This document shows, piece after piece, positions 14,159 through 27,095 of a DNA stretch of 32,000 nucleotides. The translations under genes were made by a program, and so were the position numbers. The notes beneath the pieces are model-generated. The model saw only the letters and a program-made list of their open reading frames with translations. It had not been told where the DNA came from and made no database searches. Position 1 is the stretch's first letter; every line of letters starts with the position of its first letter. The DNA comes from Candidatus Jordarchaeales archaeon (GTDB lineage: Archaea; Asgardarchaeota; Jordiarchaeia; Jordiarchaeales; Freyrarchaeaceae), in contig JAWCFL010000007.1 in the NCBI GenBank assembly GCA_038858525.1, positions 11,940 to 43,939 of the forward strand, read 5' to 3'.

Positions 14159-14806
14159 GTGGTGGCTGCCTTGTTGATGGAAGCGGTAATGAAACTTACG
14201 GAGGGAATCGATGTAAGTGGCTTCACAATTAAAGCTGGAAAGGTTTCTAGGGGCAGGTTCAAGGAGGAGGTGAACTTAGACATCTATTTGTCGGGCGAAG
14301 GTGGAGCGGCTCTCCTGCTTTACGTTAAAGCCTTTTATGGGCGGTGGCCGCATTACTATCCCTGGGTTGAACTCTTCGGCTTTAGGAGAAACGTCTCGGT
14401 TGGAGGATCCACTGTAAAGTACTTTGACTCCGTCTTTGAGGACACGCTTTTATCCCTCTTTGGGGGAGCCCTCGAGCCTGGGGGCAGCATTTTTGTGGAG
14501 TATCAGGAGGACTGGGAGACGAGAAAACAGCTTGAACGCGGCTTCCCTCCTCCAGTTTCGCGCTTAGGCTACAAGCTTTTAGAGTTAGGATTCACTTGGT
14601 TCAAGGACTGGTACTTCCCTGAGGGGTTCCTTGAGGGGGGCATGAAGATTCAGGGCGACAAGCCTGTCAGTGACGAGGAGAGGGCGAGGCATTTAGAAAG
14701 AGTGAAAGGGGAAATTAAATTGTTCCTGGAGAGGCATCATCTAGAGAGTGAGGAATACGTGGTGCGCGCCATCGGGAGAGCGAGAGAGATCCTCAGGAGG
14801 CTTTAG
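14159..14806 (+). CDS. DUF1122 family protein
   Basis: 'YYPWVELF', 'FVEYQED.ET', '[26 protein letters not shown]'. Start uncertain (14159/14177/14189). Confidence 0.8.
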
Positions 14807-16902
14807 TCTCGTTTTTCGTAAGCGCCTAGAGCTCTTAATGCTTCGTCAAGGCTTTTTGTTGGACGCTGGCAAGCGTGACCGAAACAGACGTATATCGCGC
14901 TTTCACCGTCGATTTCCTTCATTCCGCTAGTGAATGGTGCCAGTCGCTCTATACTTGGCTCTTCTGAAGAGTGGAAAAGGACTACCTTTCTTGGAATGAA
15001 AGGCTTCTGTAGAGCTTTGAGCTTTCTCTCAGTGTCTTCGCTTCTCCTAGGCCCAGCAACCACCACCTCGTATGTGGGGCCCAGGGCGAAATCGAGTGCG
15101 GACAGCATATGCGTGTATGACTCAGGTCTATTCTTGATGTCCCTTGAGAAAGCTTTGATGACTTCCTCTGCCCTCTCCTCATAATCCACCCTGCCAGTCA
15201 TATGGCTGAGACGGAGCAAGTTCATCATAGCAACAGAGTTGCCGGATGGGTATGGTCCATCATGCCCCTCCTTCACGTTAACTAAGACGTGCTCCGCGTC
15301 GCTTGCTGCGAGGTGAAATCCGCCTGTCTCGCTGTCCCAGAAGAGGCGTAACGCTTCATCCATGAGCGTGACGGCTTCCTCCAAGTATTTCTCCTCGAAG
15401 CATGCCTCGTAAAGCTCCAGTAGCCCCCACGCTAGGAAGGCGTAGTCGTCGAGAAATCCTCTGACTGATGGTCCGTCCTCAAAGTAGACGTGGCATAACT
15501 CTCCACCAGACCCGCGCGCCTTGTCAAGTATGAAGTCTGCTGTTTCGCGGGCAGCCTGAAGATACTCATTGTCCCCGAGCACTTGGAACGCTTTGGAGAG
15601 GGCCGCTATCATGAGGCCGTTCCAGTCTGTGAGGGCCTTCGTGTCCTTTTCCGGGTGTGCTCTTCTCTCCCTGAACCTGAAAAGCTTTAGCCTGGATTTC
15701 TCGATGATCTCCTCTAGTTCTTCCACTGGTAGACCGGCTTCTGCGGCGAGCGCCGGGATGGGCTTCGAGAAGTACAGCACGTTTTTCCCTGTTCTCTCAC
15801 CTAGAGGACCGGTGAAGTTTCCCTCTCTGGTTACATTGAACATTTTCATCACGAGGTCTGCATCTTCCCCGTGAAGCGCCTCTCTGACTTCTTCCTCAGA
15901 CCAGAGGTAGAACCCTCCCTCCTCTCCGCCACTTTCCGCGTCCTCAGCCGAGTAGAAAATGTTTTTAGGGCTTTTAAGCGTCCTCAAAACGTAGCTCAAA
16001 ACCTCCCTTGCTGTCCGCGCGTAAAAATCTTCCCCCGTCACCTGGAAAGTTTCTAGGTAAGCTATGGTGATCATAGCTTGGTCGTAAAGCATCTTCTCGA
16101 AGTGGGGGAACCTCCACCTTGAATCCGTAGAGTACCTGTGGAAGCCGAAGCCAACATGGTCGTATATGCCGCCGAGCCTCATCCACCTAAGAGTTTTCTC
16201 AACCATCGAGAGAGCTCTGCCCTCACCAGTTCGCTTCCAGTAACGTAGCAGGAAGCATAGCCTATGTGGCTCTGGGAACTTCGGAGCGTACCCGAAACCT
16301 CCAACTCTCTCATCGAAAAAGGATGATAAAGCCTCGTATGCCCTGTGAAGCGCATCATCACCCGGTGCTTCTCCCGCGTGAAGCTTCACGCTAAGCATAG
16401 AAGTTGCCACGTCAGCGGCTTCCTCCACCTCTCTTCTTCTGTTCCTCCAAGCTTCTAAGATCCGCGGTACAAGCTCCCTGAGACCCATTATGCCAAACCT
16501 GCTCTCCCTCGGAATGTATGTTGCGGCGAAGAACGGCTTCTTGTCGGGCGTCATGATCACGGTAAGAGGCCACCCCCCAACCCCAGTCATCGCTTGACAA
16601 ACTTTCATGTAAACAGCATCAATGTCCGGCCTCTCCTCCCTATCAACCTTCACGCACACAAACGCTTCATTCAGCATTTTCGCCACTTCAGGATCCTGAA
16701 ATGACTCCCTCTCCATAACGTGGCACCAGTGACAGGTAGAGTATCCCACAGAGAGGAAAACAGGCTTGTCCTCCTTCTTGGCCTTTCTGAACGCCTCGTC
16801 TCCCCAGGGATACCAGTCAACAGGATTATACGCGTGCCTTCTAAGGTAAACGCTTCTCTCAGACGCAAGCCTGTTAGGCTTACTCCCCCTAAAATCATCC
16901 AA
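14803..16902 (-). CDS. yyaL: YyaL/SSP411-type thioredoxin-like + (alpha/alpha)6 domain protein
   Basis: '[26 protein letters not shown]', '[15 protein letters not shown]', 'KVDREERPD', 'FEKMLYDQA', 'FLDDYA'. The TTG start at 16902 is preferred over the 17145 extension. Confidence 0.9.
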
Positions 16903-17347
16903 ACCAACCACCACGAAAACGAGGAAGCTACCCCGGGTAAAATCCTTTACTAAAATTAGTCGTAAAGCTTCCTTGAAGATCAGTAATTTTCTCCCGGTTT
17001 CTATCATGAAACCCCAAAAACCAGTGTTCCTTTTCAAGCACAATGCTTTTTTCATAGGAGGAACACTCTTTATGGGCAACCATACGTGCCACTCTTTATC
17101 CACACGTCGCCTTGACTTACCTTGCACTTTGACTTGAAAAATCACTCAATCATTAAGGGAGCCTTCCCATATTCGTCGTTGCCAGACGAACCACTCAATC
17201 TACGGAAACATTTTATCTAAAAAAAGTAAATTTTACTCTCATTTTCGCCGTAAAAGCATCAAAGCCTAGCATCCTCTGCAAAGGTAACCGCTAGTAACTT
17301 TAAACCATTATTTAAGTAACAAAAAAGGGGGGTTTAAGCGTTCATTC

Positions 17348-19351
17348 TTAGTCTTTCATGTATATGACTGCTGTGGTGTCTGTGGCGTCGAAGATTATCC
17401 GTTCATATCCGATGAGGTCCTTGTAGTTGTCCCATCTAGGTAGCTTTCCAAGTAATCCGTCAGGGTCTCCTGGATACCCGTTCCTCATGAAGTTGCTGAT
17501 GTAAGCTATGATGGCGTTGGACAGTGCGATCCTTCCAGGCTCGTTCTGCTTGGTCCATGCGAAGTTGCAGTAGGGGAACCCTTCGCCTTCACCTACATTG
17601 CCGAGCACGAATGGGACGTCGATGGAGTGGCATGCTCCCAGAAGGAAGTCGAGTGGCTTAGGCTCCTGGTTCCAGCAGAATCTGAATACGTAAACGTTGC
17701 TCTGATGCTTGCTCATAAACGTCGCAACAAGGTCTGTTCCCACAGCTTCCCACAGCTTCGTGCTTACCGTTGAGATAAGGTCGTATCCGACCAAGAGCAG
17801 CCAGTCCAGGAACGGTGCCAGTTCCTCTGGCCATGGGCGCATGGCTTCCAGGTACTCTGAGAGGCTTGGAATGTAGCGTCCAAACGTCGTGTTAAGGTAG
17901 CTTGCCATGTCAGAGAGCCCCATTGAAAGGAAGAACTTGAATTCCTCCTCGCAACTACCTATGATCACTGGCACCTTGACGTAGTTTCCGTCTCTGAGCC
18001 TAATGTATGGGTTCTCAGCTACAACGTATCCGTCCGCATAAGTCATAGAGACCACGCTCATCAGGCCCATTAGGTACTTGCCCGCTGAGTCTTCAGGCAT
18101 CAGGCTGGAGAGTAGTTCAGGTGGAACCAGACTCATGATAGTTGTAATCAGCTTGTTCATCTGGTCAACTAGGTCGGACACTACCGGTTGTATGCTGGAA
18201 GGTAGAAGACCTATGAGTAGGTTTGATGGCAGTAGGCTGGTCATAAGGGAGAGCAGGTCTACTTGAGCTCCGCTATAGTCTCTTACAGCTTCATAGAGCT
18301 CCTTCATGTCCGCGTTTCTCAGCAGGCTTGCAATCTTATCCTGCGTCATGTTTGCAATGATGTTCAATGCCTCGTTTATGTTGTTCGCGTTTCCCCTCTT
18401 GACCAGCAGGCTGGCTAATATGAGGTTCGCTGACCGCTCAGCCGCCTCAAGTGACGCCGTCATTATTCCTCCACTCTCCAATATAGCTCTGTGGAACAGC
18501 TTGATCCCCTTATCGAAGTACTGCTGCTTAACGTAGGGCGAGGTAATTAGGGCGAGTATGTTCATGGCGCCAGCCGACTCTCCTGCGATGGTTACGCAGT
18601 CAGGGTTCCCTCCGAAGTTCTTTATGTTCTTCTTCACCCATTCAAGCGCCTTCACGATGTCAAGCAGACCGTAGTTACCTGAGTCGTTTAATGGATCACC
18701 AGTCTTGAGGGCTGGGTGATAAAGCCACCCCTCTATTCCAACTCTGTAGTTGAAGGTGACGACGACGGCGTTAGCTTTGCGAGCCAAGTTCGCGCCATAG
18801 TAGAGCGGCATTGAGCTACTGCCGGACACGTCGGCGCCACCGTAAACCCAGACGAAAACTGGAAGGTTGCTAGGTAAACTTCCATCCCTTGTCTTCGGCA
18901 CCCATATGTTCAAGTAGAGACAGTCCTCGCTTCCAATCACGGCGCCAGTAGCTATTTCGTCTTCATAGCTTTCATCTGCAACACACATTACGGACGCAAT
19001 CTGCATCGGTATGTCGGAGAAGCTCGTCGCGTTAAGCACACCTTGCCATGGGGTAGGGTCTTGAGGCGCCTTCCAGCGCAAGTCACCTACAGGTGGCTTC
19101 GCGTAAGGAATGCCGAGCCAAGCATAAGTATAATTGTCCCATGCAAAGCCACGAACAAGCCCGTATGCTGTTTTTACGAGTAGTGGGTCATTGCTGGCTT
19201 GAGAAGCGACGGCAAACGATGCTGTTCCCGTATTAAGGCTAACCAAGAACCAAGAGGATGACGCAGCGCTTGCTAATGCGCCACCTTCCATGCTTACGAT
19301 GATCAATGCACAAAGAAGCACTGCGGTCACAGCCAGATGTTTCCTCCTCAC
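17348..19351 (-). CDS. Secreted type-B carboxylesterase/lipase (COesterase family)
   Basis: Signal peptide (RRKH + hydrophobic stretch), 'LGIPYAKPPVGDLRWKAPQ', 'SEDCLYLNIWVP', GESAG nucleophile, 'GSCEEEF' acid, 'GACHSIDVPF' His. GTG start after GGAGGAGG. Confidence 0.92.
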   Translation of the reverse strand: MRRKHLAVTAVLLCALIIVSMEGGALASAASSSWFLVSLNTGTASFAVASQASNDPLLVKTAYGLVRGFAWDNYTYAWLGIPYAKPPVGDLRWKAPQDPTPWQGVLNATSFSDIPMQIASVMCVADESYEDEIATGAVIGSEDCLYLNIWVPKTRDGSLPSNLPVFVWVYGGADVSGSSSMPLYYGANLARKANAVVVTFNYRVGIEGWLYHPALKTGDPLNDSGNYGLLDIVKALEWVKKNIKNFGGNPDCVTIAGESAGAMNILALITSPYVKQQYFDKGIKLFHRAILESGGIMTASLEAAERSANLILASLLVKRGNANNINEALNIIANMTQDKIASLLRNADMKELYEAVRDYSGAQVDLLSLMTSLLPSNLLIGLLPSSIQPVVSDLVDQMNKLITTIMSLVPPELLSSLMPEDSAGKYLMGLMSVVSMTYADGYVVAENPYIRLRDGNYVKVPVIIGSCEEEFKFFLSMGLSDMASYLNTTFGRYIPSLSEYLEAMRPWPEELAPFLDWLLLVGYDLISTVSTKLWEAVGTDLVATFMSKHQSNVYVFRFCWNQEPKPLDFLLGACHSIDVPFVLGNVGEGEGFPYCNFAWTKQNEPGRIALSNAIIAYISNFMRNGYPGDPDGLLGKLPRWDNYKDLIGYERIIFDATDTTAVIYMKD

Positions 19352-20340
19352 TCTTCCTCCTCCCAAAAACTTTGTTGGGTATTAACTTCTCAATAATTTA
19401 TAAATTTTTACGTCGAATGTGTGATGTATAAAAGCATATAACAAATAAAAATTCTCTATTCGGTGAACCATAAGAAACCCTTTCTCGTTCCCCCCGCTTT
19501 CTTCCCCCTTTTTTGTTGCACCAGCTACTTGATGACTATCATGTTGACGGCGTTCTGCCGGCTTTATCGCGCTGAAAATGCTTCCCCCTTTCAGGGATAA
19601 ATTGCGGCGAAGAGAGCTTTCTTGTCCGTTTTTCATGACCGAACGCTATTCATCGTCTGGCAGACATCACGCAGGTCATGTCCGTACAGCCCGTCAACTT
19701 TCATGCGCAGCCGCCTCTTCAACCCCTTCCATTCTCTGTGTTTTTAGAGCAATTTTCCTCTAAGCGTGGAGCCTGTAGCAGGTAGAATAAAGAGGGCTGT
19801 CCTTTTTCTGGTTCTCCCCTTAAGCTCTCTTAAGGGGCTGGTTAACGGTAACGTTACGTTTTGTTTTTGATGGCCTTTTCATTCAAACAGGAGCCTATGT
19901 TTTCGCCCTCTTCGACTTTAGCTGAACTGCTAAAATATAAAGAGAGGGAGCATTGTTGTAAATTATGCTTGGCGCGGCGTTCCTTAATACAGATGTCCCT
20001 CCTGTTGGAGGACTCTTTTCAAGGTGTTTTGAAAAAAGCTTGGCTCAAGTGACCGAAGTTTTTATGAAGGCTAACGAGTTTCCTTTTACTGATATTGCAC
20101 TCCCCAAAAGTGAAGCTACCGCTAGTGCTGGCTCCGGACGCGGCTCATGGAGTGGTGGGAGCGTGAAAGCGCTGCTCAGGTGGTAATGCAGAGGAGTGGC
20201 AGAAGAGGAAATAGCTGAGAAACTAAGAGCAGTGTACTTCGTTAGCTGGGGCAGAAGGCCGCTTTACTGTGACACGCCTGCTCAGGAACACCGACAGAGA
20301 CGTATAAAGTACCTTTCCTTTATTCTATTCGCTGAATCCG

Positions 20341-21132
20341 TTACTCTAGTGGGATTTTCTCTCCTGGTCTTGGTGGCGTCAGCGTGAAGGCTTCCTCCAC
20401 GCTTATTACTCCCACCTGTCCCAGTATTGTTCTTTTCTTCCCTTCGTAGACTCCTTTGACTTGGTATGCCATGGCGTCCATTGTTAGGACTGCAGCCGCT
20501 ACTTGCTCCCCCGGCTTTAGTCTCTCTGTTTCCGTTGAGCGGGTACCGAAGACCAGCTTTGAGCCTGCAACGACTCGTGCGGAGATGGCTGGAGTTATAA
20601 TTGGTTGTCCGTCCTCGAGCTTAGCTATAACTTTGACCGCGTTAATCCTGTTAAACTTCTCGGCAATGTTCGGGTGTATCCTTCTCCCACCTTTCAGCAT
20701 AGGTGCAAGCATCGCCGCTAAGACATCAAGTAGTATATTAGCTTTGGACTTCGCTTTTTCAACCTGCCACACCTTTTCGATCTTAATTATTCCGGCAGCC
20801 CTCGCTCCAGTATAGGCGTTATACTTGAAGAGTGGAATCTCTGATATGAAGTCGTAATGCTCCCCCTTTCTCTCGAATCCATTGAAGATGCCCGTGGCGA
20901 CGTAGTTTTCAAGCTTCTCTGTCACAACGCAGACGCACACCTTGCACCCCTCAGTAAGGTTTCTCCTCGTTTTGAGCATCATGAACTCGCCGAAGACGAG
21001 CGTCTCCTCGTCGAATGCCCTTATGGAAATTACGGGGACGACGTTAGGTTTTCCATCCCCGCCCGCCGTAGCAAGGAACTTGCCCGCCATTTCAAGGTTG
21101 AACGCTTCAACAGCCTCGCGTGGAAGAACCAT
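20341..21132 (-). CDS. Tandem pyridoxamine-5'-phosphate-oxidase-like (split-barrel flavin-binding) protein
   Basis: Domain 1 'KFLATAGGDGKPNVVP...ETLVFGEFMMLKTRRNL'; degenerate domain 2 'GQPIITP...KLVFG...AYQVKG'. The ATG overlaps the activase stop (TAATG). Confidence 0.85.
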   Translation of the reverse strand: MVLPREAVEAFNLEMAGKFLATAGGDGKPNVVPVISIRAFDEETLVFGEFMMLKTRRNLTEGCKVCVCVVTEKLENYVATGIFNGFERKGEHYDFISEIPLFKYNAYTGARAAGIIKIEKVWQVEKAKSKANILLDVLAAMLAPMLKGGRRIHPNIAEKFNRINAVKVIAKLEDGQPIITPAISARVVAGSKLVFGTRSTETERLKPGEQVAAAVLTMDAMAYQVKGVYEGKKRTILGQVGVISVEEAFTLTPPRPGEKIPLE

Positions 21133-22061
21133 TACTTCACCTCCCTTTCAACCATCCCACTCCAAGTGACTCTTTTTACCCCCTCCTCCTCAGCTACCCT
21201 GACTAGTTTTTCCATTTCCTCCCGCTTCATGAGCCTCGCTCCCTCCAGCGGAAACCTCAACCCCAAACGCTTGTACTTTGACGTGCAAAGGTTGTTGAAT
21301 GCCAGCAGGTCGTAGCGCTCAACGGTCGGTAGCTTATCCGTTATGAAGCGAGATATAGCCCTCACGTTCTCCTCACCATCAGTCATCCCAGGTATGATTG
21401 GCGTCCTGATCCACATGCGCACCCCCTCCTCAGCCAGTTTAACCGCGTTTTCCCATATCAGCTCTGGGTCAACTCCCGTAAGCTCCCTGTGCCTTGCAGC
21501 ATCCATGAGTTTCAAGTCGTATAGGACGAGGTCAACCCATTTAAGTACCTCCTTAAACCTTTTCCATGGAGCGAAGCCGCTGGTGTCTAGGGCAACGTGG
21601 ACGCCGTGCTCCCTAATCGCCGGGAGAACCTCCATTAGGAAATCCGCCTGCAGCATGGGTTCCCCTCCCGAAAAGGTAACCCCGCCCTCCGACGTCTCGT
21701 AGAATACTCTGTCGCGCAGAACCTCCTCCACAAGTCTCTCAGCACTATACTCAACACCTATGACTTCCAGCGCACCTGTGGGGCATGCCTTTACGCATAA
21801 CCCGCACACCGTGCATTTCCCCCTGTCCACGTGAAGCCCGTCCCTATTCAGCCTGAGCGCCCCAGCACTGCACGTCTTGATGCATGCTCTCACTCCAATG
21901 CACCTTACATCATACCATACGAGCTCCGGCTTGGGGTTGATCCCTTCAGGGTTCTGGCACCAGGCACACCTGAGAGGGCACCCCTTCATGAAGACAGTCG
22001 TCCTTATTCCGGGTCCGTCTTCGGTTGAAAACCTCTGAACATTAAAGATTACTCCTCCCAA
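21132..22061 (-). CDS. Glycyl-radical enzyme activating enzyme (radical SAM) with ferredoxin-like insert
   Basis: 'FNVQRFSTEDGPGIRTTVFMKGCPLRCAWCQNPEG' (CxxxCxxC), ferredoxin insert, 'GGVTFSGGEP', 'DTSG', 'IRTPIIPG'. Confidence 0.95.
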   Translation of the reverse strand: MGGVIFNVQRFSTEDGPGIRTTVFMKGCPLRCAWCQNPEGINPKPELVWYDVRCIGVRACIKTCSAGALRLNRDGLHVDRGKCTVCGLCVKACPTGALEVIGVEYSAERLVEEVLRDRVFYETSEGGVTFSGGEPMLQADFLMEVLPAIREHGVHVALDTSGFAPWKRFKEVLKWVDLVLYDLKLMDAARHRELTGVDPELIWENAVKLAEEGVRMWIRTPIIPGMTDGEENVRAISRFITDKLPTVERYDLLAFNNLCTSKYKRLGLRFPLEGARLMKREEMEKLVRVAEEEGVKRVTWSGMVEREVK

Positions 22062-22074
22062 GGGACCCCGCTCC

Positions 22075-24441
22075 TTAGAGGCCGTGGCATGCCCTAGCTA
22101 TTATTTCCTCCTGCTGTTCTCTTCCCAGTGTTACGAAGTAAGCGTTGTATCCCGTTACTCGGACAAGGAGGTTCCTGTACTCTTCAGGCTTCCTCTGGGC
22201 CTCCCTCAGGATCTCTGGGTCTATCATGTTGACTTGCAGGCTTGTGCCTCCAACTTCGCAGCACGCTAGTAGGAATGCTGCCAGCTTCTCCAAGTGTTCC
22301 GCGTCCCTCACCATTGAGGGGCTAAGCGTTATGACTTGCGATGCTCCATTGGGCGCTGTCTCAAGCCCGAGCTTCCCAACTGATCGTATCACGGCTGTTG
22401 GCCCCTTCGTGTCCATTCCCTGAACAGGCTGGACTCCGTTCGACAAGAACCTGCCCCTAGGTCTCCCGTCTGGTGTAGCCGCTGTCTTGGGTGCGAAGTC
22501 TATGTAGTAGTTCCACGAGAGGTAGCCTCCCCTGTATCTTCTCCCAGTTGCTGGGGAAATGTGTTTGAACACTTCCTGCGTCCAGTACATCGACACCTTA
22601 CTAGCTATTTGGTCTGCGTAGTCGTCGTCGTTGCCGAACTTTGGCGCCTTGAAGAGTAGCCGCCTCTGAAGCTCCTCGAACCCTTCAAAGTTCCTCTTTA
22701 TGGCCTCCATGAGCTCCTCCATTTTTACTTCCTTCTCCTCAAAGACAAGCTTCTTGACCGCAGCTAGGCTGTCGGCGGCCGTTGCTAGCCCTACGCCCTC
22801 GACCGTTATAAAGTTGTAAATCGCTCCCCCTTGCCTCACGTCTATGCCTTTTTCAGCGCACCCGTCTACGAGAGCGGAGAGATATGGAACCGGCTCCCAG
22901 CGTGCCCTTATCGCGTCAGCCTCTGAAGCAAGCTCCAGTGTTCTCTCAATACACTTTTTGAGCTGGGCGAAGTATGCCTCCTCAAATTCCTCATAACTCT
23001 CGAAGCTTCTAGGGTCCTTGGTCTTTACTCCTATCATCTCGCCGGTTTTAAGGTCGCAGCCCATGCCGAAAACCAGCTCTACAGGCTTGGCGAGGTTTAT
23101 GTTGACATCCACGGTCCCAGACCTATCTTTCCCCTGAGCCGTGTTTTCAAGGCAACCCACAACTCCATAGTCCCAAGCTTCATCCTCTGGAATCCCCTCC
23201 CAAACCATTCCTTTTATCGCATTCTCGTCGAAGTTTATCAGGAAGGGTGAGCCCTGCGTCCGCGTCAAAACCTCGCAAACCCTGAGGAGAAACTCCCTCG
23301 AAATGTTCCTGTGTATTCTGACGTTGAGCTTCGGTTCGAGCATGTTCATTTCCTCGGCGACCTCGAGGACGAGCCAGGTGAGCTCGTTCACGGCGTCGCC
23401 CCCATCCTTTTTTATTCCGCCTATTGTTATTAGCTGGCCGAAGCCCGAGTTGATCCCTTGGTTCCCTATTTTGCCCATGTAGTCGTAAGCGTAGTTGTGC
23501 TTCACCCAGAAGCACTGGAGAAGCTCCTTCGCCATCTCCCTCGTAAGCCTACCCTTCTCTATGTCCCTCTTGTAGTATGGATACATGTACTGGTCGAGCC
23601 TCCCATGGGATAGCCCTGGTCCCGGGTAGCTCTCAGCGGCCATCACGAGCATGTGCGTGAACCAGACCGACTGCAAAGCCTCCCAGAAGGACTCGGCAGG
23701 CTCCCATGGAACCTTCCTGCATATTCTGGCTATCTCGAGTAGCTCAGCCCGCCTTCCCTCATCCTTCTCTTTTTCCGCTAGTCTTTCAGCCTCCTCAGCG
23801 TATCTCTCAGCAAACCTTTTGACGGCTTCGACAGCTATCACCATGGCCCTCACGTAGTCCTTCTTCGCCTTATCCCTGTGCTTATCCATCCAATGGAGGA
23901 GCTCGTCCCTTATCCCTCTGAACCCCTTCTCGAGAACCTTCCTGTAGTTTGGGATTATGTGTCCCGGTATGGCGCCACAGTTCATAACGCCTAAGTCGGA
24001 GAGCTTAACCATCCTTCTAAACCAGCTCTCCTCAGCCTTCCTCCACTTTTCCGCCTCCTTCTTTGTGAAGCACTTTGAGAGGGCAGTGTTGAAGTTGAAG
24101 CCGACTATTAGCTCACCGTCAAGTATCCTAACGGGGAGATACTCCTCGATCACCTTTCTAAAGAATATAGCCCTCCTGACGGGCAGGCTCTCCCTCCAGA
24201 ACTCCTCGGGGAGTTCAACTCTGACCGCTATCGTTTTGAGCGTGTCCCTCATCGCAGGGAGGAAGGGGAACAGTTCAGGAACTACTCCCCAATCATGGTA
24301 AGAAAACACTTCGTCCCACGGCGTCCCAGTAGTGTAAGCGATCACCTCGTTGGTGGGTCTCGTTTCGAATGAGAAGTACTCGCTCCTAAGCTTTCTAACC
24401 CTAGCGGAGAGCTTCTCGGAGGGAGCCCAAATTCTTATCAT
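22075..24441 (-). CDS. Glycyl radical enzyme, single-Cys (non-PFL) type, substrate unknown
   Basis: Gly loop RVTGYNAYF (Gly764, nt 22150-22152). Cys loop VVGCLEN (Cys430, nt 23152-23154; Glu432). Also 'GRLDQY', 'PKFGNDD', 'ATPDGR'. Confidence 0.95.
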   Translation of the reverse strand: MIRIWAPSEKLSARVRKLRSEYFSFETRPTNEVIAYTTGTPWDEVFSYHDWGVVPELFPFLPAMRDTLKTIAVRVELPEEFWRESLPVRRAIFFRKVIEEYLPVRILDGELIVGFNFNTALSKCFTKKEAEKWRKAEESWFRRMVKLSDLGVMNCGAIPGHIIPNYRKVLEKGFRGIRDELLHWMDKHRDKAKKDYVRAMVIAVEAVKRFAERYAEEAERLAEKEKDEGRRAELLEIARICRKVPWEPAESFWEALQSVWFTHMLVMAAESYPGPGLSHGRLDQYMYPYYKRDIEKGRLTREMAKELLQCFWVKHNYAYDYMGKIGNQGINSGFGQLITIGGIKKDGGDAVNELTWLVLEVAEEMNMLEPKLNVRIHRNISREFLLRVCEVLTRTQGSPFLINFDENAIKGMVWEGIPEDEAWDYGVVGCLENTAQGKDRSGTVDVNINLAKPVELVFGMGCDLKTGEMIGVKTKDPRSFESYEEFEEAYFAQLKKCIERTLELASEADAIRARWEPVPYLSALVDGCAEKGIDVRQGGAIYNFITVEGVGLATAADSLAAVKKLVFEEKEVKMEELMEAIKRNFEGFEELQRRLLFKAPKFGNDDDYADQIASKVSMYWTQEVFKHISPATGRRYRGGYLSWNYYIDFAPKTAATPDGRPRGRFLSNGVQPVQGMDTKGPTAVIRSVGKLGLETAPNGASQVITLSPSMVRDAEHLEKLAAFLLACCEVGGTSLQVNMIDPEILREAQRKPEEYRNLLVRVTGYNAYFVTLGREQQEEIIARACHGL

Positions 24442-24677: not shown

Positions 24678-24911
24678 ATGGTGGTGTTCTTGTCTGTAAT
24701 TACGATCAGAGTTCCTGACGACTTGAGAAAGAGGATGCGCCGCGTGAAGGTTAACTGGAGCGAGGAGATAAGGAGGTTTATTGCTCAGCGCGTTGAGGAG
24801 GAGGAGCGTAAAGAAAACCTTGAAAGGGCCATCAAGATGCTCAGGGGGAGAAAGGGTGTCGAGAAAGGTTTCTCGGCGGCGTCTGTGAGGGAGGACCGTG
24901 AATGTGGTTGA
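24678..24911 (+). CDS. vapB: VapB-like antitoxin (RHH-type)
   Basis: 'SVITIRVPDDLRKRM...VNWSEEIRRFI', C-terminal 'VREDRE'; overlaps the downstream PIN gene. Confidence 0.8.
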   Translation: MVVFLSVITIRVPDDLRKRMRRVKVNWSEEIRRFIAQRVEEEERKENLERAIKMLRGRKGVEKGFSAASVREDRECG

Positions 24912-25290
24912 CGCCTCATCCCTCGCCAAGGTTCTTCTACAGGAGGAAGGGTGGGAAGAAGTCGACCTGACCGATAGGACGGCGACACTCGACCACGCGC
25001 TTATAGAGACTCTCAACGCCGTGTGGAAAGCTGCAATACAAGGAAGGCTGAGCGAGGAGGACGCCATGGAGAGAGTCGAGGCGTTGAAGCTCATCGGCAG
25101 CGGGCTCCTAGTCTTCAAGGCTCAAGATTACTTCAAGCGATCGATTGAGATAGCCCTAGCAGAAAAAGTCACGGTTTACGACGCAGTATACATAGCTCTC
25201 GCCGAGCAACTTGGAGCAGAACTTCAAACCTCAGACGCCAAACAGTTTCTAGCAGCTAAAAAGTATGTGAAAGCAAAACTCATAAAGTAA
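24898..25290 (+). CDS. vapC: VapC PIN-domain toxin
   Basis: 'VVDASSLAK', 'IETLNAVWK', 'TVYDAVYIALAE', 'TSD'. Confidence 0.9.
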   Translation: MNVVDASSLAKVLLQEEGWEEVDLTDRTATLDHALIETLNAVWKAAIQGRLSEEDAMERVEALKLIGSGLLVFKAQDYFKRSIEIALAEKVTVYDAVYIALAEQLGAELQTSDAKQFLAAKKYVKAKLIK

Positions 25291-25988: not shown

Positions 25989-26196
25989 CAAGGTGATGGA
26001 GGAGTTAGAGCACCATTTAATTTATCTATCCAAAACTGCTAACGAGGGCAACGAAATAGCTGATAAGGGGAAATTAGAGTTTGGGATCCTGGAGCATGCA
26101 TCTCCAAGTTGACCTTTTTTTGATTGGTTGCAGAGCCTTTTTTAAACTTAGAATTTATCTAATTCATGGTGAGAAATATTCTTGGTGGGCTTAGGC

Positions 26197-26670
26197 ATGG
26201 AAGGGTTGTCGTTTGAGGAGCTTATGGGGCGTCTGGATGTGGCCTCCCGGGAGCTGAAGCGGTTTTTCGGGGGGGCTTACGCTGGGCTGATGCTTTTCGG
26301 AAGTTGGGCTAGGGGTGAGGCTGGGGAGAAGAGTGACGTCGACGTCCTCGTAGTGTTAAGGGGGGCTGAAGGGTTAAGGGTTAGGGGTGAAGTCTACAGG
26401 GTTTTGGCTAGGCATGTTGGAAGGCCTCTTACTCTAGTGGACGTCGAGCTGAGTGAGGTTTCAAGGGATAACTTTGAGGTTACGCCTCTGCTTCTCAACG
26501 CGCTCTATGATGGTGTGGTGGTCTACGATGAGTTTGGAGTTCTTGGGGCGCTTAAGCAGAAGACCGCCAAACTAGTCAAAAAAGCGCGCCTAACAAGGTA
26601 CAGGACGCCAGACGGGAAGTACGGGTGGAGGAGGGTTGACGGAAAACCCTTGGAGGCTGTGGAGGTTTGA
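26197..26670 (+). CDS. mntA: MNT nucleotidyltransferase
   Basis: GS-x10-DxD (FGSWARGEAGEKSDVD); overlaps the downstream HEPN gene by 4 nt. Alternative start 26182. Confidence 0.88.
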   Translation: MEGLSFEELMGRLDVASRELKRFFGGAYAGLMLFGSWARGEAGEKSDVDVLVVLRGAEGLRVRGEVYRVLARHVGRPLTLVDVELSEVSRDNFEVTPLLLNALYDGVVVYDEFGVLGALKQKTAKLVKKARLTRYRTPDGKYGWRRVDGKPLEAVEV

Positions 26671-27095
26671 AGTTTAACCCAGCCAACGAGGTGTCCTACA
26701 GAGCTAGGCTCGCCGCCCGCTACTTGGAGGAGGCAGAGGATGCGCTCAGGCGGCGAGATTACAGGGGGGCTGTAGCTTCATCTCAGCTTTCCACTGAAAA
26801 CTCGGCTAAGGCTGTCATCGCCTTGTTTAGTATACCCAGCTGGAGCCATGACCCTTCCCACGAGCTTCTCGAGGTCCTACACATGTTGCCAGAAAACATG
26901 AGGAGACTGGCTGAAGAGCTCGCGGAAATTGCAAGGCAGCTTGCCCCCGAGCATGGAAGAACCACGTATGGTGAACCCGTAAAGAGACTTACACCATGGG
27001 ACATCTACGATGAGGAAAGCGCTTCAGAAGCCCTTTCAAAGGCCACCAGAGCCCAAGAAATAATGAACATGATACTTAGCAAGATGAGGACATAA
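26667..27095 (+). CDS. hepT: HEPN domain protein
   Basis: 'YLEEAEDAL...AVASSQLSTENSAKAVI', 'PSWSHDP', 'TYGEP...PWDIY'. Confidence 0.85.
   Translation: MKFNPANEVSYRARLAARYLEEAEDALRRRDYRGAVASSQLSTENSAKAVIALFSIPSWSHDPSHELLEVLHMLPENMRRLAEELAEIARQLAPEHGRTTYGEPVKRLTPWDIYDEESASEALSKATRAQEIMNMILSKMRT

Follow-up and report, generated by a model that had tools for sequence, protein, structure and literature searches.

The operon described here most probably (we put the probability at about 60%) encodes an oxygen-sensitive, heteromeric glycyl radical enzyme (GRE) of the eliminase type, its activase and a new kind of subunit, a tandem split-barrel protein that we call P3. It is located in a stretch of 32,000 nucleotides (the window) on contig JAWCFL010000007.1 of a Candidatus Jordarchaeales archaeon (assembly GCA_038858525.1), where three open reading frames (ORFs) on the minus strand follow each other in one direction in the order GRE, activase and P3 (Table 1). 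The interpretation is based on the combination of eliminase-type catalytic residues with a different substrate site in the GRE, on the linkage of P3 to this GRE clade in archaea and bacteria, and on a predicted complex of the two proteins. An earlier reading of the window from its letters (the sequence-only reading) had described the three genes as one unit, and direct reading of the junctions confirmed both the 13 nucleotides between the TAA stop codon of the GRE gene and the TTG start codon of the activase gene and the TAATG overlap, in which the TAA of the activase gene and the ATG of the P3 gene share one A. The residues Gly764, Cys430/Glu432 and His161 to which it had pointed in the GRE are present and invariant in 35 clade members, and the segments that it had quoted (ESYPGPG, NQGINSGFGQ, SGTVDVN, YLSWNYY and TTGTPWD..HDWGVVPE) are found in the sequence and are nearly all invariant in the clade. 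Its statement that no microcompartment genes or obvious substrate genes adjoin the operon was also correct.

Eliminase-type catalytic residues and a different substrate site in the GRE

The GRE was placed by means of the curated cut-offs of NCBIfam hidden Markov models (HMMs) and of bit scores against PDB structures. Membership in the GRE superfamily is clear from the Pfam matches to PF02901 (PFL-like, 512 bits) and PF01228 (Gly_radical, 94 bits), from Cys430, which lies on the finger loop and aligns with Cys433 of B12-independent glycerol dehydratase (1r8w), and from the radical S-adenosylmethionine (SAM) activase encoded nearby. The latter has a CX3CX2C motif, is composed of the Pfam families Radical_SAM and ferredoxin-type 4Fe-4S (Fer4) and scores 347.5 bits against TIGR02494, above the cut-off of 174. 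The GRE itself stayed below every curated cut-off in NCBIfam, with 555 of 678 bits for the subfamily model TIGR01774 and scores far below the cut-offs of the equivalogs (HypD, 495 of 1100; HpsG, 487 of 1000; CutC, 429 of 1050; HpfG, 423 of 1000). The closest solved GREs have similar scores and comprise glycerol dehydratase (422 bits), CutC, propanediol dehydratase, PFL2 of Archaeoglobus fulgidus and HypD; eliminase structures as a whole reach 407–422 bits.

The top matches, DhaB1/DhaB2 of Clostridium butyricum (1r8w/1r9d, 422 bits) and propanediol dehydratase (5i2a, 412 bits), share with the window proteins the glycyl radical motif, the Cys-x-Glu loop, the His of the GH motif, Tyr640 and an activase with a ferredoxin insert. 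In the alignment to 1r8w, His161 of the GRE corresponds to His164 and Cys430/Glu432 correspond to Cys433/Glu435, and Tyr640 is retained. The GRE thus has the layout of an eliminase, a Cys-x-Glu loop together with a general acid at the GH position, as the sequence-only reading had recognised. The substrate-contact residues of glycerol dehydratase, in contrast, are replaced: H281/S282 by Pro275/Gly276, Y339 by the second Gly of GFGQ and D447 by Val444. Likewise, Asp278 and Tyr450 of HypD correspond to Pro275 and Asn447. Judged by substrate-contact residues together with the equivalog score, the GRE belongs to none of the named eliminases that were scored. The catalytic residues and the altered pocket segments are invariant in the 35 clade members, which are 59–92% identical, and the same holds for Arg440, Asp445, Arg637, Ser642, Trp643 and Asn644, which are predicted to line the pocket.

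The N-terminal region differs as well. All alignments to solved GREs start near residue 160 of the GRE. Upstream of this position residues 48–96 of glycerol dehydratase pair weakly with residues 87–136 of the GRE, which implies that the GRE is longer by about 39 residues near the N-terminus and shorter by about 43 ahead of the GH motif. Within the N-terminal region W5, R19, R28, N31, E32, G39, W42, D43, W51 and P55 are invariant among the 35 relatives. The mismatch with characterised enzymes that had been noticed earlier in the pocket and at the N-terminus can therefore be described as replaced substrate-contact residues and a remodelled N-terminus, and with scores below the cut-offs and pocket residues replaced the GRE is not close to any of the characterised enzymes compared that would have the same pocket. 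HypD (6vxc) and CutC (5a0u, 9f3w) have the superfamily and the eliminase-type loop in common with the GRE and differ from it in the scores and, in the case of HypD, in the contact residues given above; neither is known to need an extra subunit. PFL2/PflD of A. fulgidus (2f3o, 411 bits), an archaeal GRE of unknown function, also has a single Cys. However, it aligns only from residue 160 onwards, lacks the N-terminal insertion and has other pocket segments. Judging from these alignments and scores, the GRE is an enzyme with a predicted eliminase-type catalytic apparatus and a different substrate site that stands outside every named family.

Linkage of P3 to one GRE clade in archaea and bacteria

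Homologues of the GRE belong to clade A, with 56–92% identity, and to its sister clade B, with 44–49%. The nearest were found in Jordarchaeales (92%) and Nezhaarchaeales (84–86%), and homologues with 59–69% identity in Thermoproteota, Geothermincolales/Solincola, Dehalococcoidia, Thorarchaeota and Armatimonadetes. Relatives of P3 were collected in a word-based search (17 clusters) and in an exhaustive HMMER search, which returned 236 representatives, of which about 100 are full-length and have two domains; part of the locus collection used a 15-sequence P3 alignment. Starting from P3, a GRE of the same clade (56–90% identical) lies directly upstream in 17 of 18 loci, the 18th being a 2-kb contig, and all 17 informative loci therefore have the clade GRE adjoining P3. 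The hosts are Jordarchaeum, Nezhaarchaeota, Thermoproteota, Nitrospiraceae, Hydrogenedentota, Armatimonadota and Actinomycetota. For the reverse look-up, four relatives of the GRE located on long contigs were picked blind to their neighbours, and in each case a P3 of 261–276 amino acids, confirmed by HMM, follows right after the activase or the GRE. Among 301 sampled genomes of the Asgard phylum, surveyed with a GRE threshold of E ≤ 1e-150, 120 encode the GRE, 118 encode P3 and 109 encode both; four of the nine genomes with P3 only have weak single-domain matches. In clade B the same arrangement is found with P3 proteins of 21–29% identity, and in one genome (G212) P3 lies 1.4 kb downstream of a clade B GRE. 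Pairwise identities of GRE and of P3 correlate over 20 loci with a Pearson coefficient of 0.95, the pairs not being independent of each other.

In five loci (L009–L011, L021 and L026) P3 abuts the GRE with no activase gene between them, and in one of these, L021, no activase is encoded within 8 kb of the pair. As P3 adjoins the GRE also in loci with the activase gene at another place, it appears to be tied to the GRE and not to the activase. The dedicated partner postulated by the sequence-only reading is thus conserved with the GRE clade, and the synteny that it had suggested checking holds across genomes. Its description of an enzyme found in an archaeon was right for the archaeal hosts and too narrow for the module, whose bacterial hosts are Nitrospiraceae, Hydrogenedentota, Actinomycetota, Armatimonadota and Dehalococcoidia.

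Fold and origin of P3

The AlphaFold2 model of P3 consists of two split barrels, with a predicted local distance difference test (pLDDT) of 89 and a predicted template modelling score (pTM) of 0.88. Foldseek, Pfam and profile matches agree on this fold. Each half resembles HupZ, the flavin mononucleotide (FMN)-binding protein of Desulfovibrio vulgaris, Swol_0183 and coenzyme F420 reductases (target TM score about 0.8, Foldseek probability 1.0), the Pfam family PNPOx_N matches the N-terminal half only and marginally (29.3 bits, cut-off 28.1), and the family profile matches HupZ with an E-value of 1.5e-10 and 3in6 with 4e-8, in both cases with the N-terminal half. No solved structure covering both halves together was returned by the structure search with the P3 model. 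An HMM of either half matches the other half, from which it follows that P3 arose by internal duplication. Compared with the single-domain split barrels HupZ (5esc), D. vulgaris FMN-binding protein (1axj, 1wlk) and Swol_0183 (3in6), with which each half shares its fold, P3 differs as a fused pseudo-dimer with family-specific RYNAYxG and PPxPG motifs and a strict linkage to a GRE.

In the order to which the window organism belongs, the partner also occurs as a single barrel of about 140 amino acids adjoining GRE and activase, and a single-domain P3 beside a clade GRE (locus L025) has all motifs of the family, namely K-T-x-x-N-L, KYNAY, YQVKG and a PxPG tail. This single-barrel protein seems to represent the ancestral state, before the fusion that gave the tandem protein. 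In tandem P3 the motifs are divided, with K-T-x-x-N and RYNAY in the N-terminal half only and YQVKG and the PPxPG tail in the C-terminal half only. From this distribution of motifs it appears that one composite face was retained after the fusion and that the symmetry-related face has decayed. In the alignment of 64 family members, conservation peaks in the family motifs, both in the RYNAY loop (R/K103 in 60, Y104 in 57, N105 in 59 and Y107 in 59 members) and in the tail (P253 in 61, P254 in all 64 and G257 in 60), and no conserved Cys is present.

Predicted complex of GRE and P3

One controlled complex prediction was made for P3 with residues 1–737 of the GRE, using family alignments for both chains. 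Residues 738–788 were omitted (the full pair has 1051 residues) and no FMN was co-folded. The median interaction prediction score from aligned errors (ipSAE) was 0.75 (0.76, 0.73 and 0.75 in the three runs), versus 0.16 for the best of three controls. In the calibration of the ipSAE mark, 58 of 80 solved complexes and 2 of 110 mismatched pairs reached it, figures that apply only approximately here, since the alignments were our own. At least 73% of the contacts are common to the runs, and the pLDDT of the partner is at least 85. PDB searches with P3 returned free-standing single-barrel proteins only and no GRE complex, which makes it unlikely that the score reflects a similar complex already known to the predictor.

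On the side of the GRE, the modelled contacts comprise residues 32–33, 41, 54 and 56–71 of the clade-specific insertion and, outside of it, Tyr272 in ESYPGPG, Asn644, residues 647–651 just past the pocket residue Tyr640, and residue 663. On the side of P3, they comprise residues 103–109 (RYNAYxG), 153–159, 219–223 and 250–260 (PPxPG tail, with 250, 252–255, 258 and 260 listed). Since the motifs that were retained after the duplication lie at these contacts, the surviving face of P3 seems to be the face that meets the GRE. In the model, this face touches the GRE only a few sequence positions away from two of its pocket-forming segments. Binding of P3 to the GRE via the predicted docking site is thus supported by the modelling. 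The sequence-only reading had pictured P3 as a partner that handles the product or the radical state. A bound subunit is more likely in view of a complex model that holds up against its controls and of the position of the conserved P3 residues on the docking face.

Proposed mechanism

We propose that the activase installs the radical on Gly764, that the radical is passed on to Cys430, and that Glu432 and His161 would serve as base and acid, as in eliminases. The pocket appears to be rebuilt from small or polar residues (ESYPGPG, GFGQ, DRSGTVD and GGYLSWNY) and to be widened by Gly and Pro. The substrate might be polar, larger than glycerol or proline and possibly anionic, and the reaction would most likely be a radical 1,2-elimination or a related rearrangement. 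P3 would dock onto the N-terminal insertion of the GRE by its RYNAYxG loop, its PPxPG tail and the residues that precede YQVKG. Docked in this way, it could complete or gate the substrate site, or hold a phosphate-bearing cofactor such as FMN.

Several observations weigh against a heteromeric eliminase with P3 as subunit. In the Asgard survey 11 genomes have the GRE only, although several of these GREs are at contig ends, and in two genomes of one family (f13; G012 and G023) a single-domain P3 is encoded 20–24 kb from the GRE. The genes around the module vary between loci and give no clue to the substrate. Binding is deduced from one model in which the glycyl radical domain is absent, the GRE being cut at residue 737, the closeness of P3 to the active site is argued from sequence position, and the contact helix 56–71 on the side of the GRE is moderately conserved. 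Gene structure, catalytic motifs and the co-inheritance of GRE and P3 were observed directly, and the kind of reaction, how large and how charged the substrate is, and the nature of any cofactor are what we infer.

GREs with dedicated small subunits are known. Benzylsuccinate synthase (BSS, 4pkc) and 4-hydroxyphenylacetate decarboxylase (2y8n) are hetero-oligomers whose small subunits are Fe-S proteins. In contrast, P3 is a split barrel without conserved Cys, and the large subunits of these two enzymes match the window GRE with 245 and 176 bits. An obligate split-barrel subunit, which also sets the module apart from glycerol dehydratase, would, if true, add a new type of accessory component to the GREs and offer a handle on the reaction. 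A more far-reaching and tentative version of the subunit proposal is that P3 is an integral catalytic subunit that closes over the active site with its RYNAYxG loop and PPxPG tail and supplies substrate-binding residues or a flavin within electron- or hydride-transfer distance of the radical site. We consider it possible, if doubtful. If true, this would be the first GRE that needs a second, cofactor-type subunit, for example for a reductive or redox-neutral radical reaction new to the superfamily, and about 40% of the sampled Asgard genomes would encode it.

Alternative functions of P3

P3 could instead be a separate oxidoreductase, dependent on FMN or F420, that reduces the GRE product or converts it in another way, and thus a pathway partner and not a subunit. 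Its fold is that of FMN-binding proteins and F420 reductases, and the motif K54-[T/S]55-x-x-N58 is kept in 48, 64 and 54 of the 64 members, respectively. In addition, cofH was detected above cut-off in the window genome. However, a search of four other host genomes gave no cofH above cut-off. F420, which the sequence-only reading had considered as cofactor, can thus be excluded as a general ligand of P3, and the score against the F420-dependent PPOX-class model TIGR03618 (17.7 bits) is below the cut-off of 79. The split-barrel superfamily also includes heme binders and cofactor-free proteins, so that membership does not imply FMN, and HupZ, the nearest solved relative of the N-terminal half, is not known as a flavoprotein (PMC11602992). 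The label flavoprotein given to the third gene earlier is therefore not warranted. After HupZ the nearest solved relatives of this half are FMN-binding proteins, and FMN is a possible ligand of P3. Taken together with the complex model, and with top-conserved residues that lie on the docking face and not in a recognisable second-substrate site, a free oxidoreductase is unlikely.

A role as flavodoxin-like one-electron donor to the [4Fe-4S] cluster of the activase seems quite improbable to us. The structural neighbour of P3 from D. vulgaris, the FMN-binding protein, is a small low-potential flavoprotein with a redox role, and in the window P3 is translationally coupled to the activase gene. On the other hand, P3 directly follows the GRE without intervening activase in the five loci described above, the complex model puts P3 on the GRE, and a second GRE-activase pair of the window genome has no P3-like partner. 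This second GRE has 841 amino acids, a GCVE loop and a canonical N-terminus, is 38% identical to the window GRE, has its own activase and is likewise below every curated cut-off (TIGR01774, 538 of 678 bits).

Alternative functions of the GRE

PFL chemistry requires an adjacent Cys-Cys pair in the active-site loop. The loop V-G-C-L-E of the window GRE has one Cys, which rules out classical PFL chemistry. The equivalog scores, 108 bits for TIGR01255 (cut-off 994) and 388 bits for NF007437 (cut-off 1109), and the match to the structure of E. coli PFL, 92 bits versus about 420 for eliminases, point in the same direction, and the sequence-only reading had rightly set PFL aside. It is therefore very improbable that the GRE is a pyruvate or 2-oxoacid formate-lyase, even though homologues are named "pyruvate formate lyase family protein" in databases and Imachi et al. 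2020 take the Asgard archaeon MK-D1 to have 2-oxoacid-formate lyases (PMC7015854).

A fumarate-adding alkyl- or benzylsuccinate synthase is also highly improbable. Zhang et al. 2021 assigned GREs of Hermodarchaeota and Thorarchaeota to this group on the basis of their single Cys and of 29–33% identity to AssA/BssA (PMC8163825), and Thorarchaeota proteins are 59–61% identical to the window GRE. However, the alpha subunit of BSS (245 bits) and MasD (265 bits) score far below the eliminases with their 407–422 bits, and the Glu two residues past the Cys and His161 are eliminase features. In addition, the ORF list contains no genes for small Fe-S subunits in the operon, and the activase reaches 240 bits against the BssD model, which has a cut-off of 496. 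By the sequence tests applied here, the window GRE fits neither the formate-lyase nor the Ass/Bss assignment. It is hardly credible that the GRE is a plain orthologue of one of the characterised eliminases (glycerol or propanediol dehydratase, HypD, CutC, IslA or HpsG) with an unchanged substrate. Eliminases are the top matches in PDB and NCBIfam, but the equivalog scores are at most half of the cut-offs, residues that contact the substrate in glycerol dehydratase and HypD have been exchanged, and the GRE has a remodelled N-terminus and an obligate partner.

The assignment matters because the GRE clade was found in several phyla of anaerobic bacteria as well as in 120 of the 301 Asgard genomes surveyed, and because such genes are annotated as pyruvate formate-lyase. 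Metabolic models of Asgard archaea assume 2-oxoacid formate-lyases and a hand-off of formate in syntrophy (PMC7015854). If the window enzyme is the one annotated in PMC7015854 or PMC8163825, their conclusions need direct assay. In the literature on GREs, searched with split-barrel, PNPOx or flavin terms, we found no paper on the GRE-P3 module. The only PNPOx-like gene of a GRE operon that we found there is LssP, which is expressed from the limonenylsuccinate synthase operon of a Syntrophobacteraceae metagenome-assembled genome and has an unknown role (PMC12583861). LssP is a second, unrelated split-barrel gene in a GRE operon, and belongs to a different clade.

Host genome, expression and genomic surroundings

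The window genome has a size of 2.09 Mb and is 92.7% complete, and the window stretch was found in hot-spring metagenomes of several studies. Due to this thermophilic origin, the copy in the window is a reasonable choice for expression and structural work. Contigs from the sediment metatranscriptome library X14 (records 18 and 20) span both gene junctions with about 99% identity and patchy cover. This is a weak hint that the operon is expressed, as DNA carry-over is possible.

Table 1 Coordinates of the operon and of related features. Positions refer to the window unless a genome, contig or locus is named.
Feature	Position	Strand	Basis
GRE, 788 aa, uncharacterised clade	22075..24441	(-)	Pfam PFL-like 512 bits, Gly_radical 94 bits
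Clade-specific N-terminal insertion of the GRE, about residues 30-80, predicted P3 docking site	24202..24354	(-)	alignment, invariant residues, model contacts
His161 codon of the GRE (PGH)	23959..23961	(-)	aligned to His164 of glycerol dehydratase; invariant
Cys loop of the GRE, G-C430-L-E432-N, single Cys, Cys-x-Glu	23143..23157	(-)	alignment; invariance
Glycyl radical motif RVTGY, Gly764	22147..22161	(-)	invariant; Pfam Gly_radical spans residues 667-770
GRE-activating radical SAM enzyme, 309 aa, CPLRCAWC and two-cluster ferredoxin insert	21132..22061	(-)	TIGR02494, Pfam
P3, tandem split-barrel protein, 263 aa, pseudo-dimer by internal duplication	20341..21132	(-)	AlphaFold2 model, structure matches, half-HMM cross-match
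P3 loop F-K-Y-N-A-Y-T-G, residues 102-109, family consensus RYNAYxG, predicted GRE interface	20806..20829	(-)	
P3 C-terminal tail P-P-R-P-G-E-K-I, residues 253-260, predicted GRE interface	20353..20376	(-)	
TTTAAAAT, candidate archaeal TATA box about 55 nucleotides upstream of the GRE start codon	24496..24503	(-)	sequence reading
Single-barrel P3	G028:C1:305462-305824; locus L025:2427-2912	(-)	all family motifs
Second GRE of the window genome	G000 contig C15, 28067-30076; locus L023:1063-3588	(-)	activase at L023:81-1016

Downstream of the operon there is a gene-poor stretch of about 0.7–0.95 kb (window 19382-20340), which is unusual in an otherwise compact genome. Its sole ORF is an 84-aa frame without Pfam match, and a search of the gene-free stretch 19300-20400 against Rfam gave no match. 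Further downstream (window 14803-19366, minus strand), a 672-aa carboxylesterase-family protein and a 780-aa DUF255 thioredoxin-like protein are encoded, whose genes do not accompany the module in the other genomes. On the opposite side, immediately upstream, lie a PIN-domain gene and a nucleotidyltransferase/HEPN pair, both of the toxin-antitoxin type (window 24898-25290 and 26182-27095, both plus strand). On a Thermoproteota-like contig (L019:17037-18376), the module, with a GRE 69% identical to that of the window, is followed by nrdR, a ribonucleotide reductase and a further, different GRE of 809 amino acids that is cut by the locus end.

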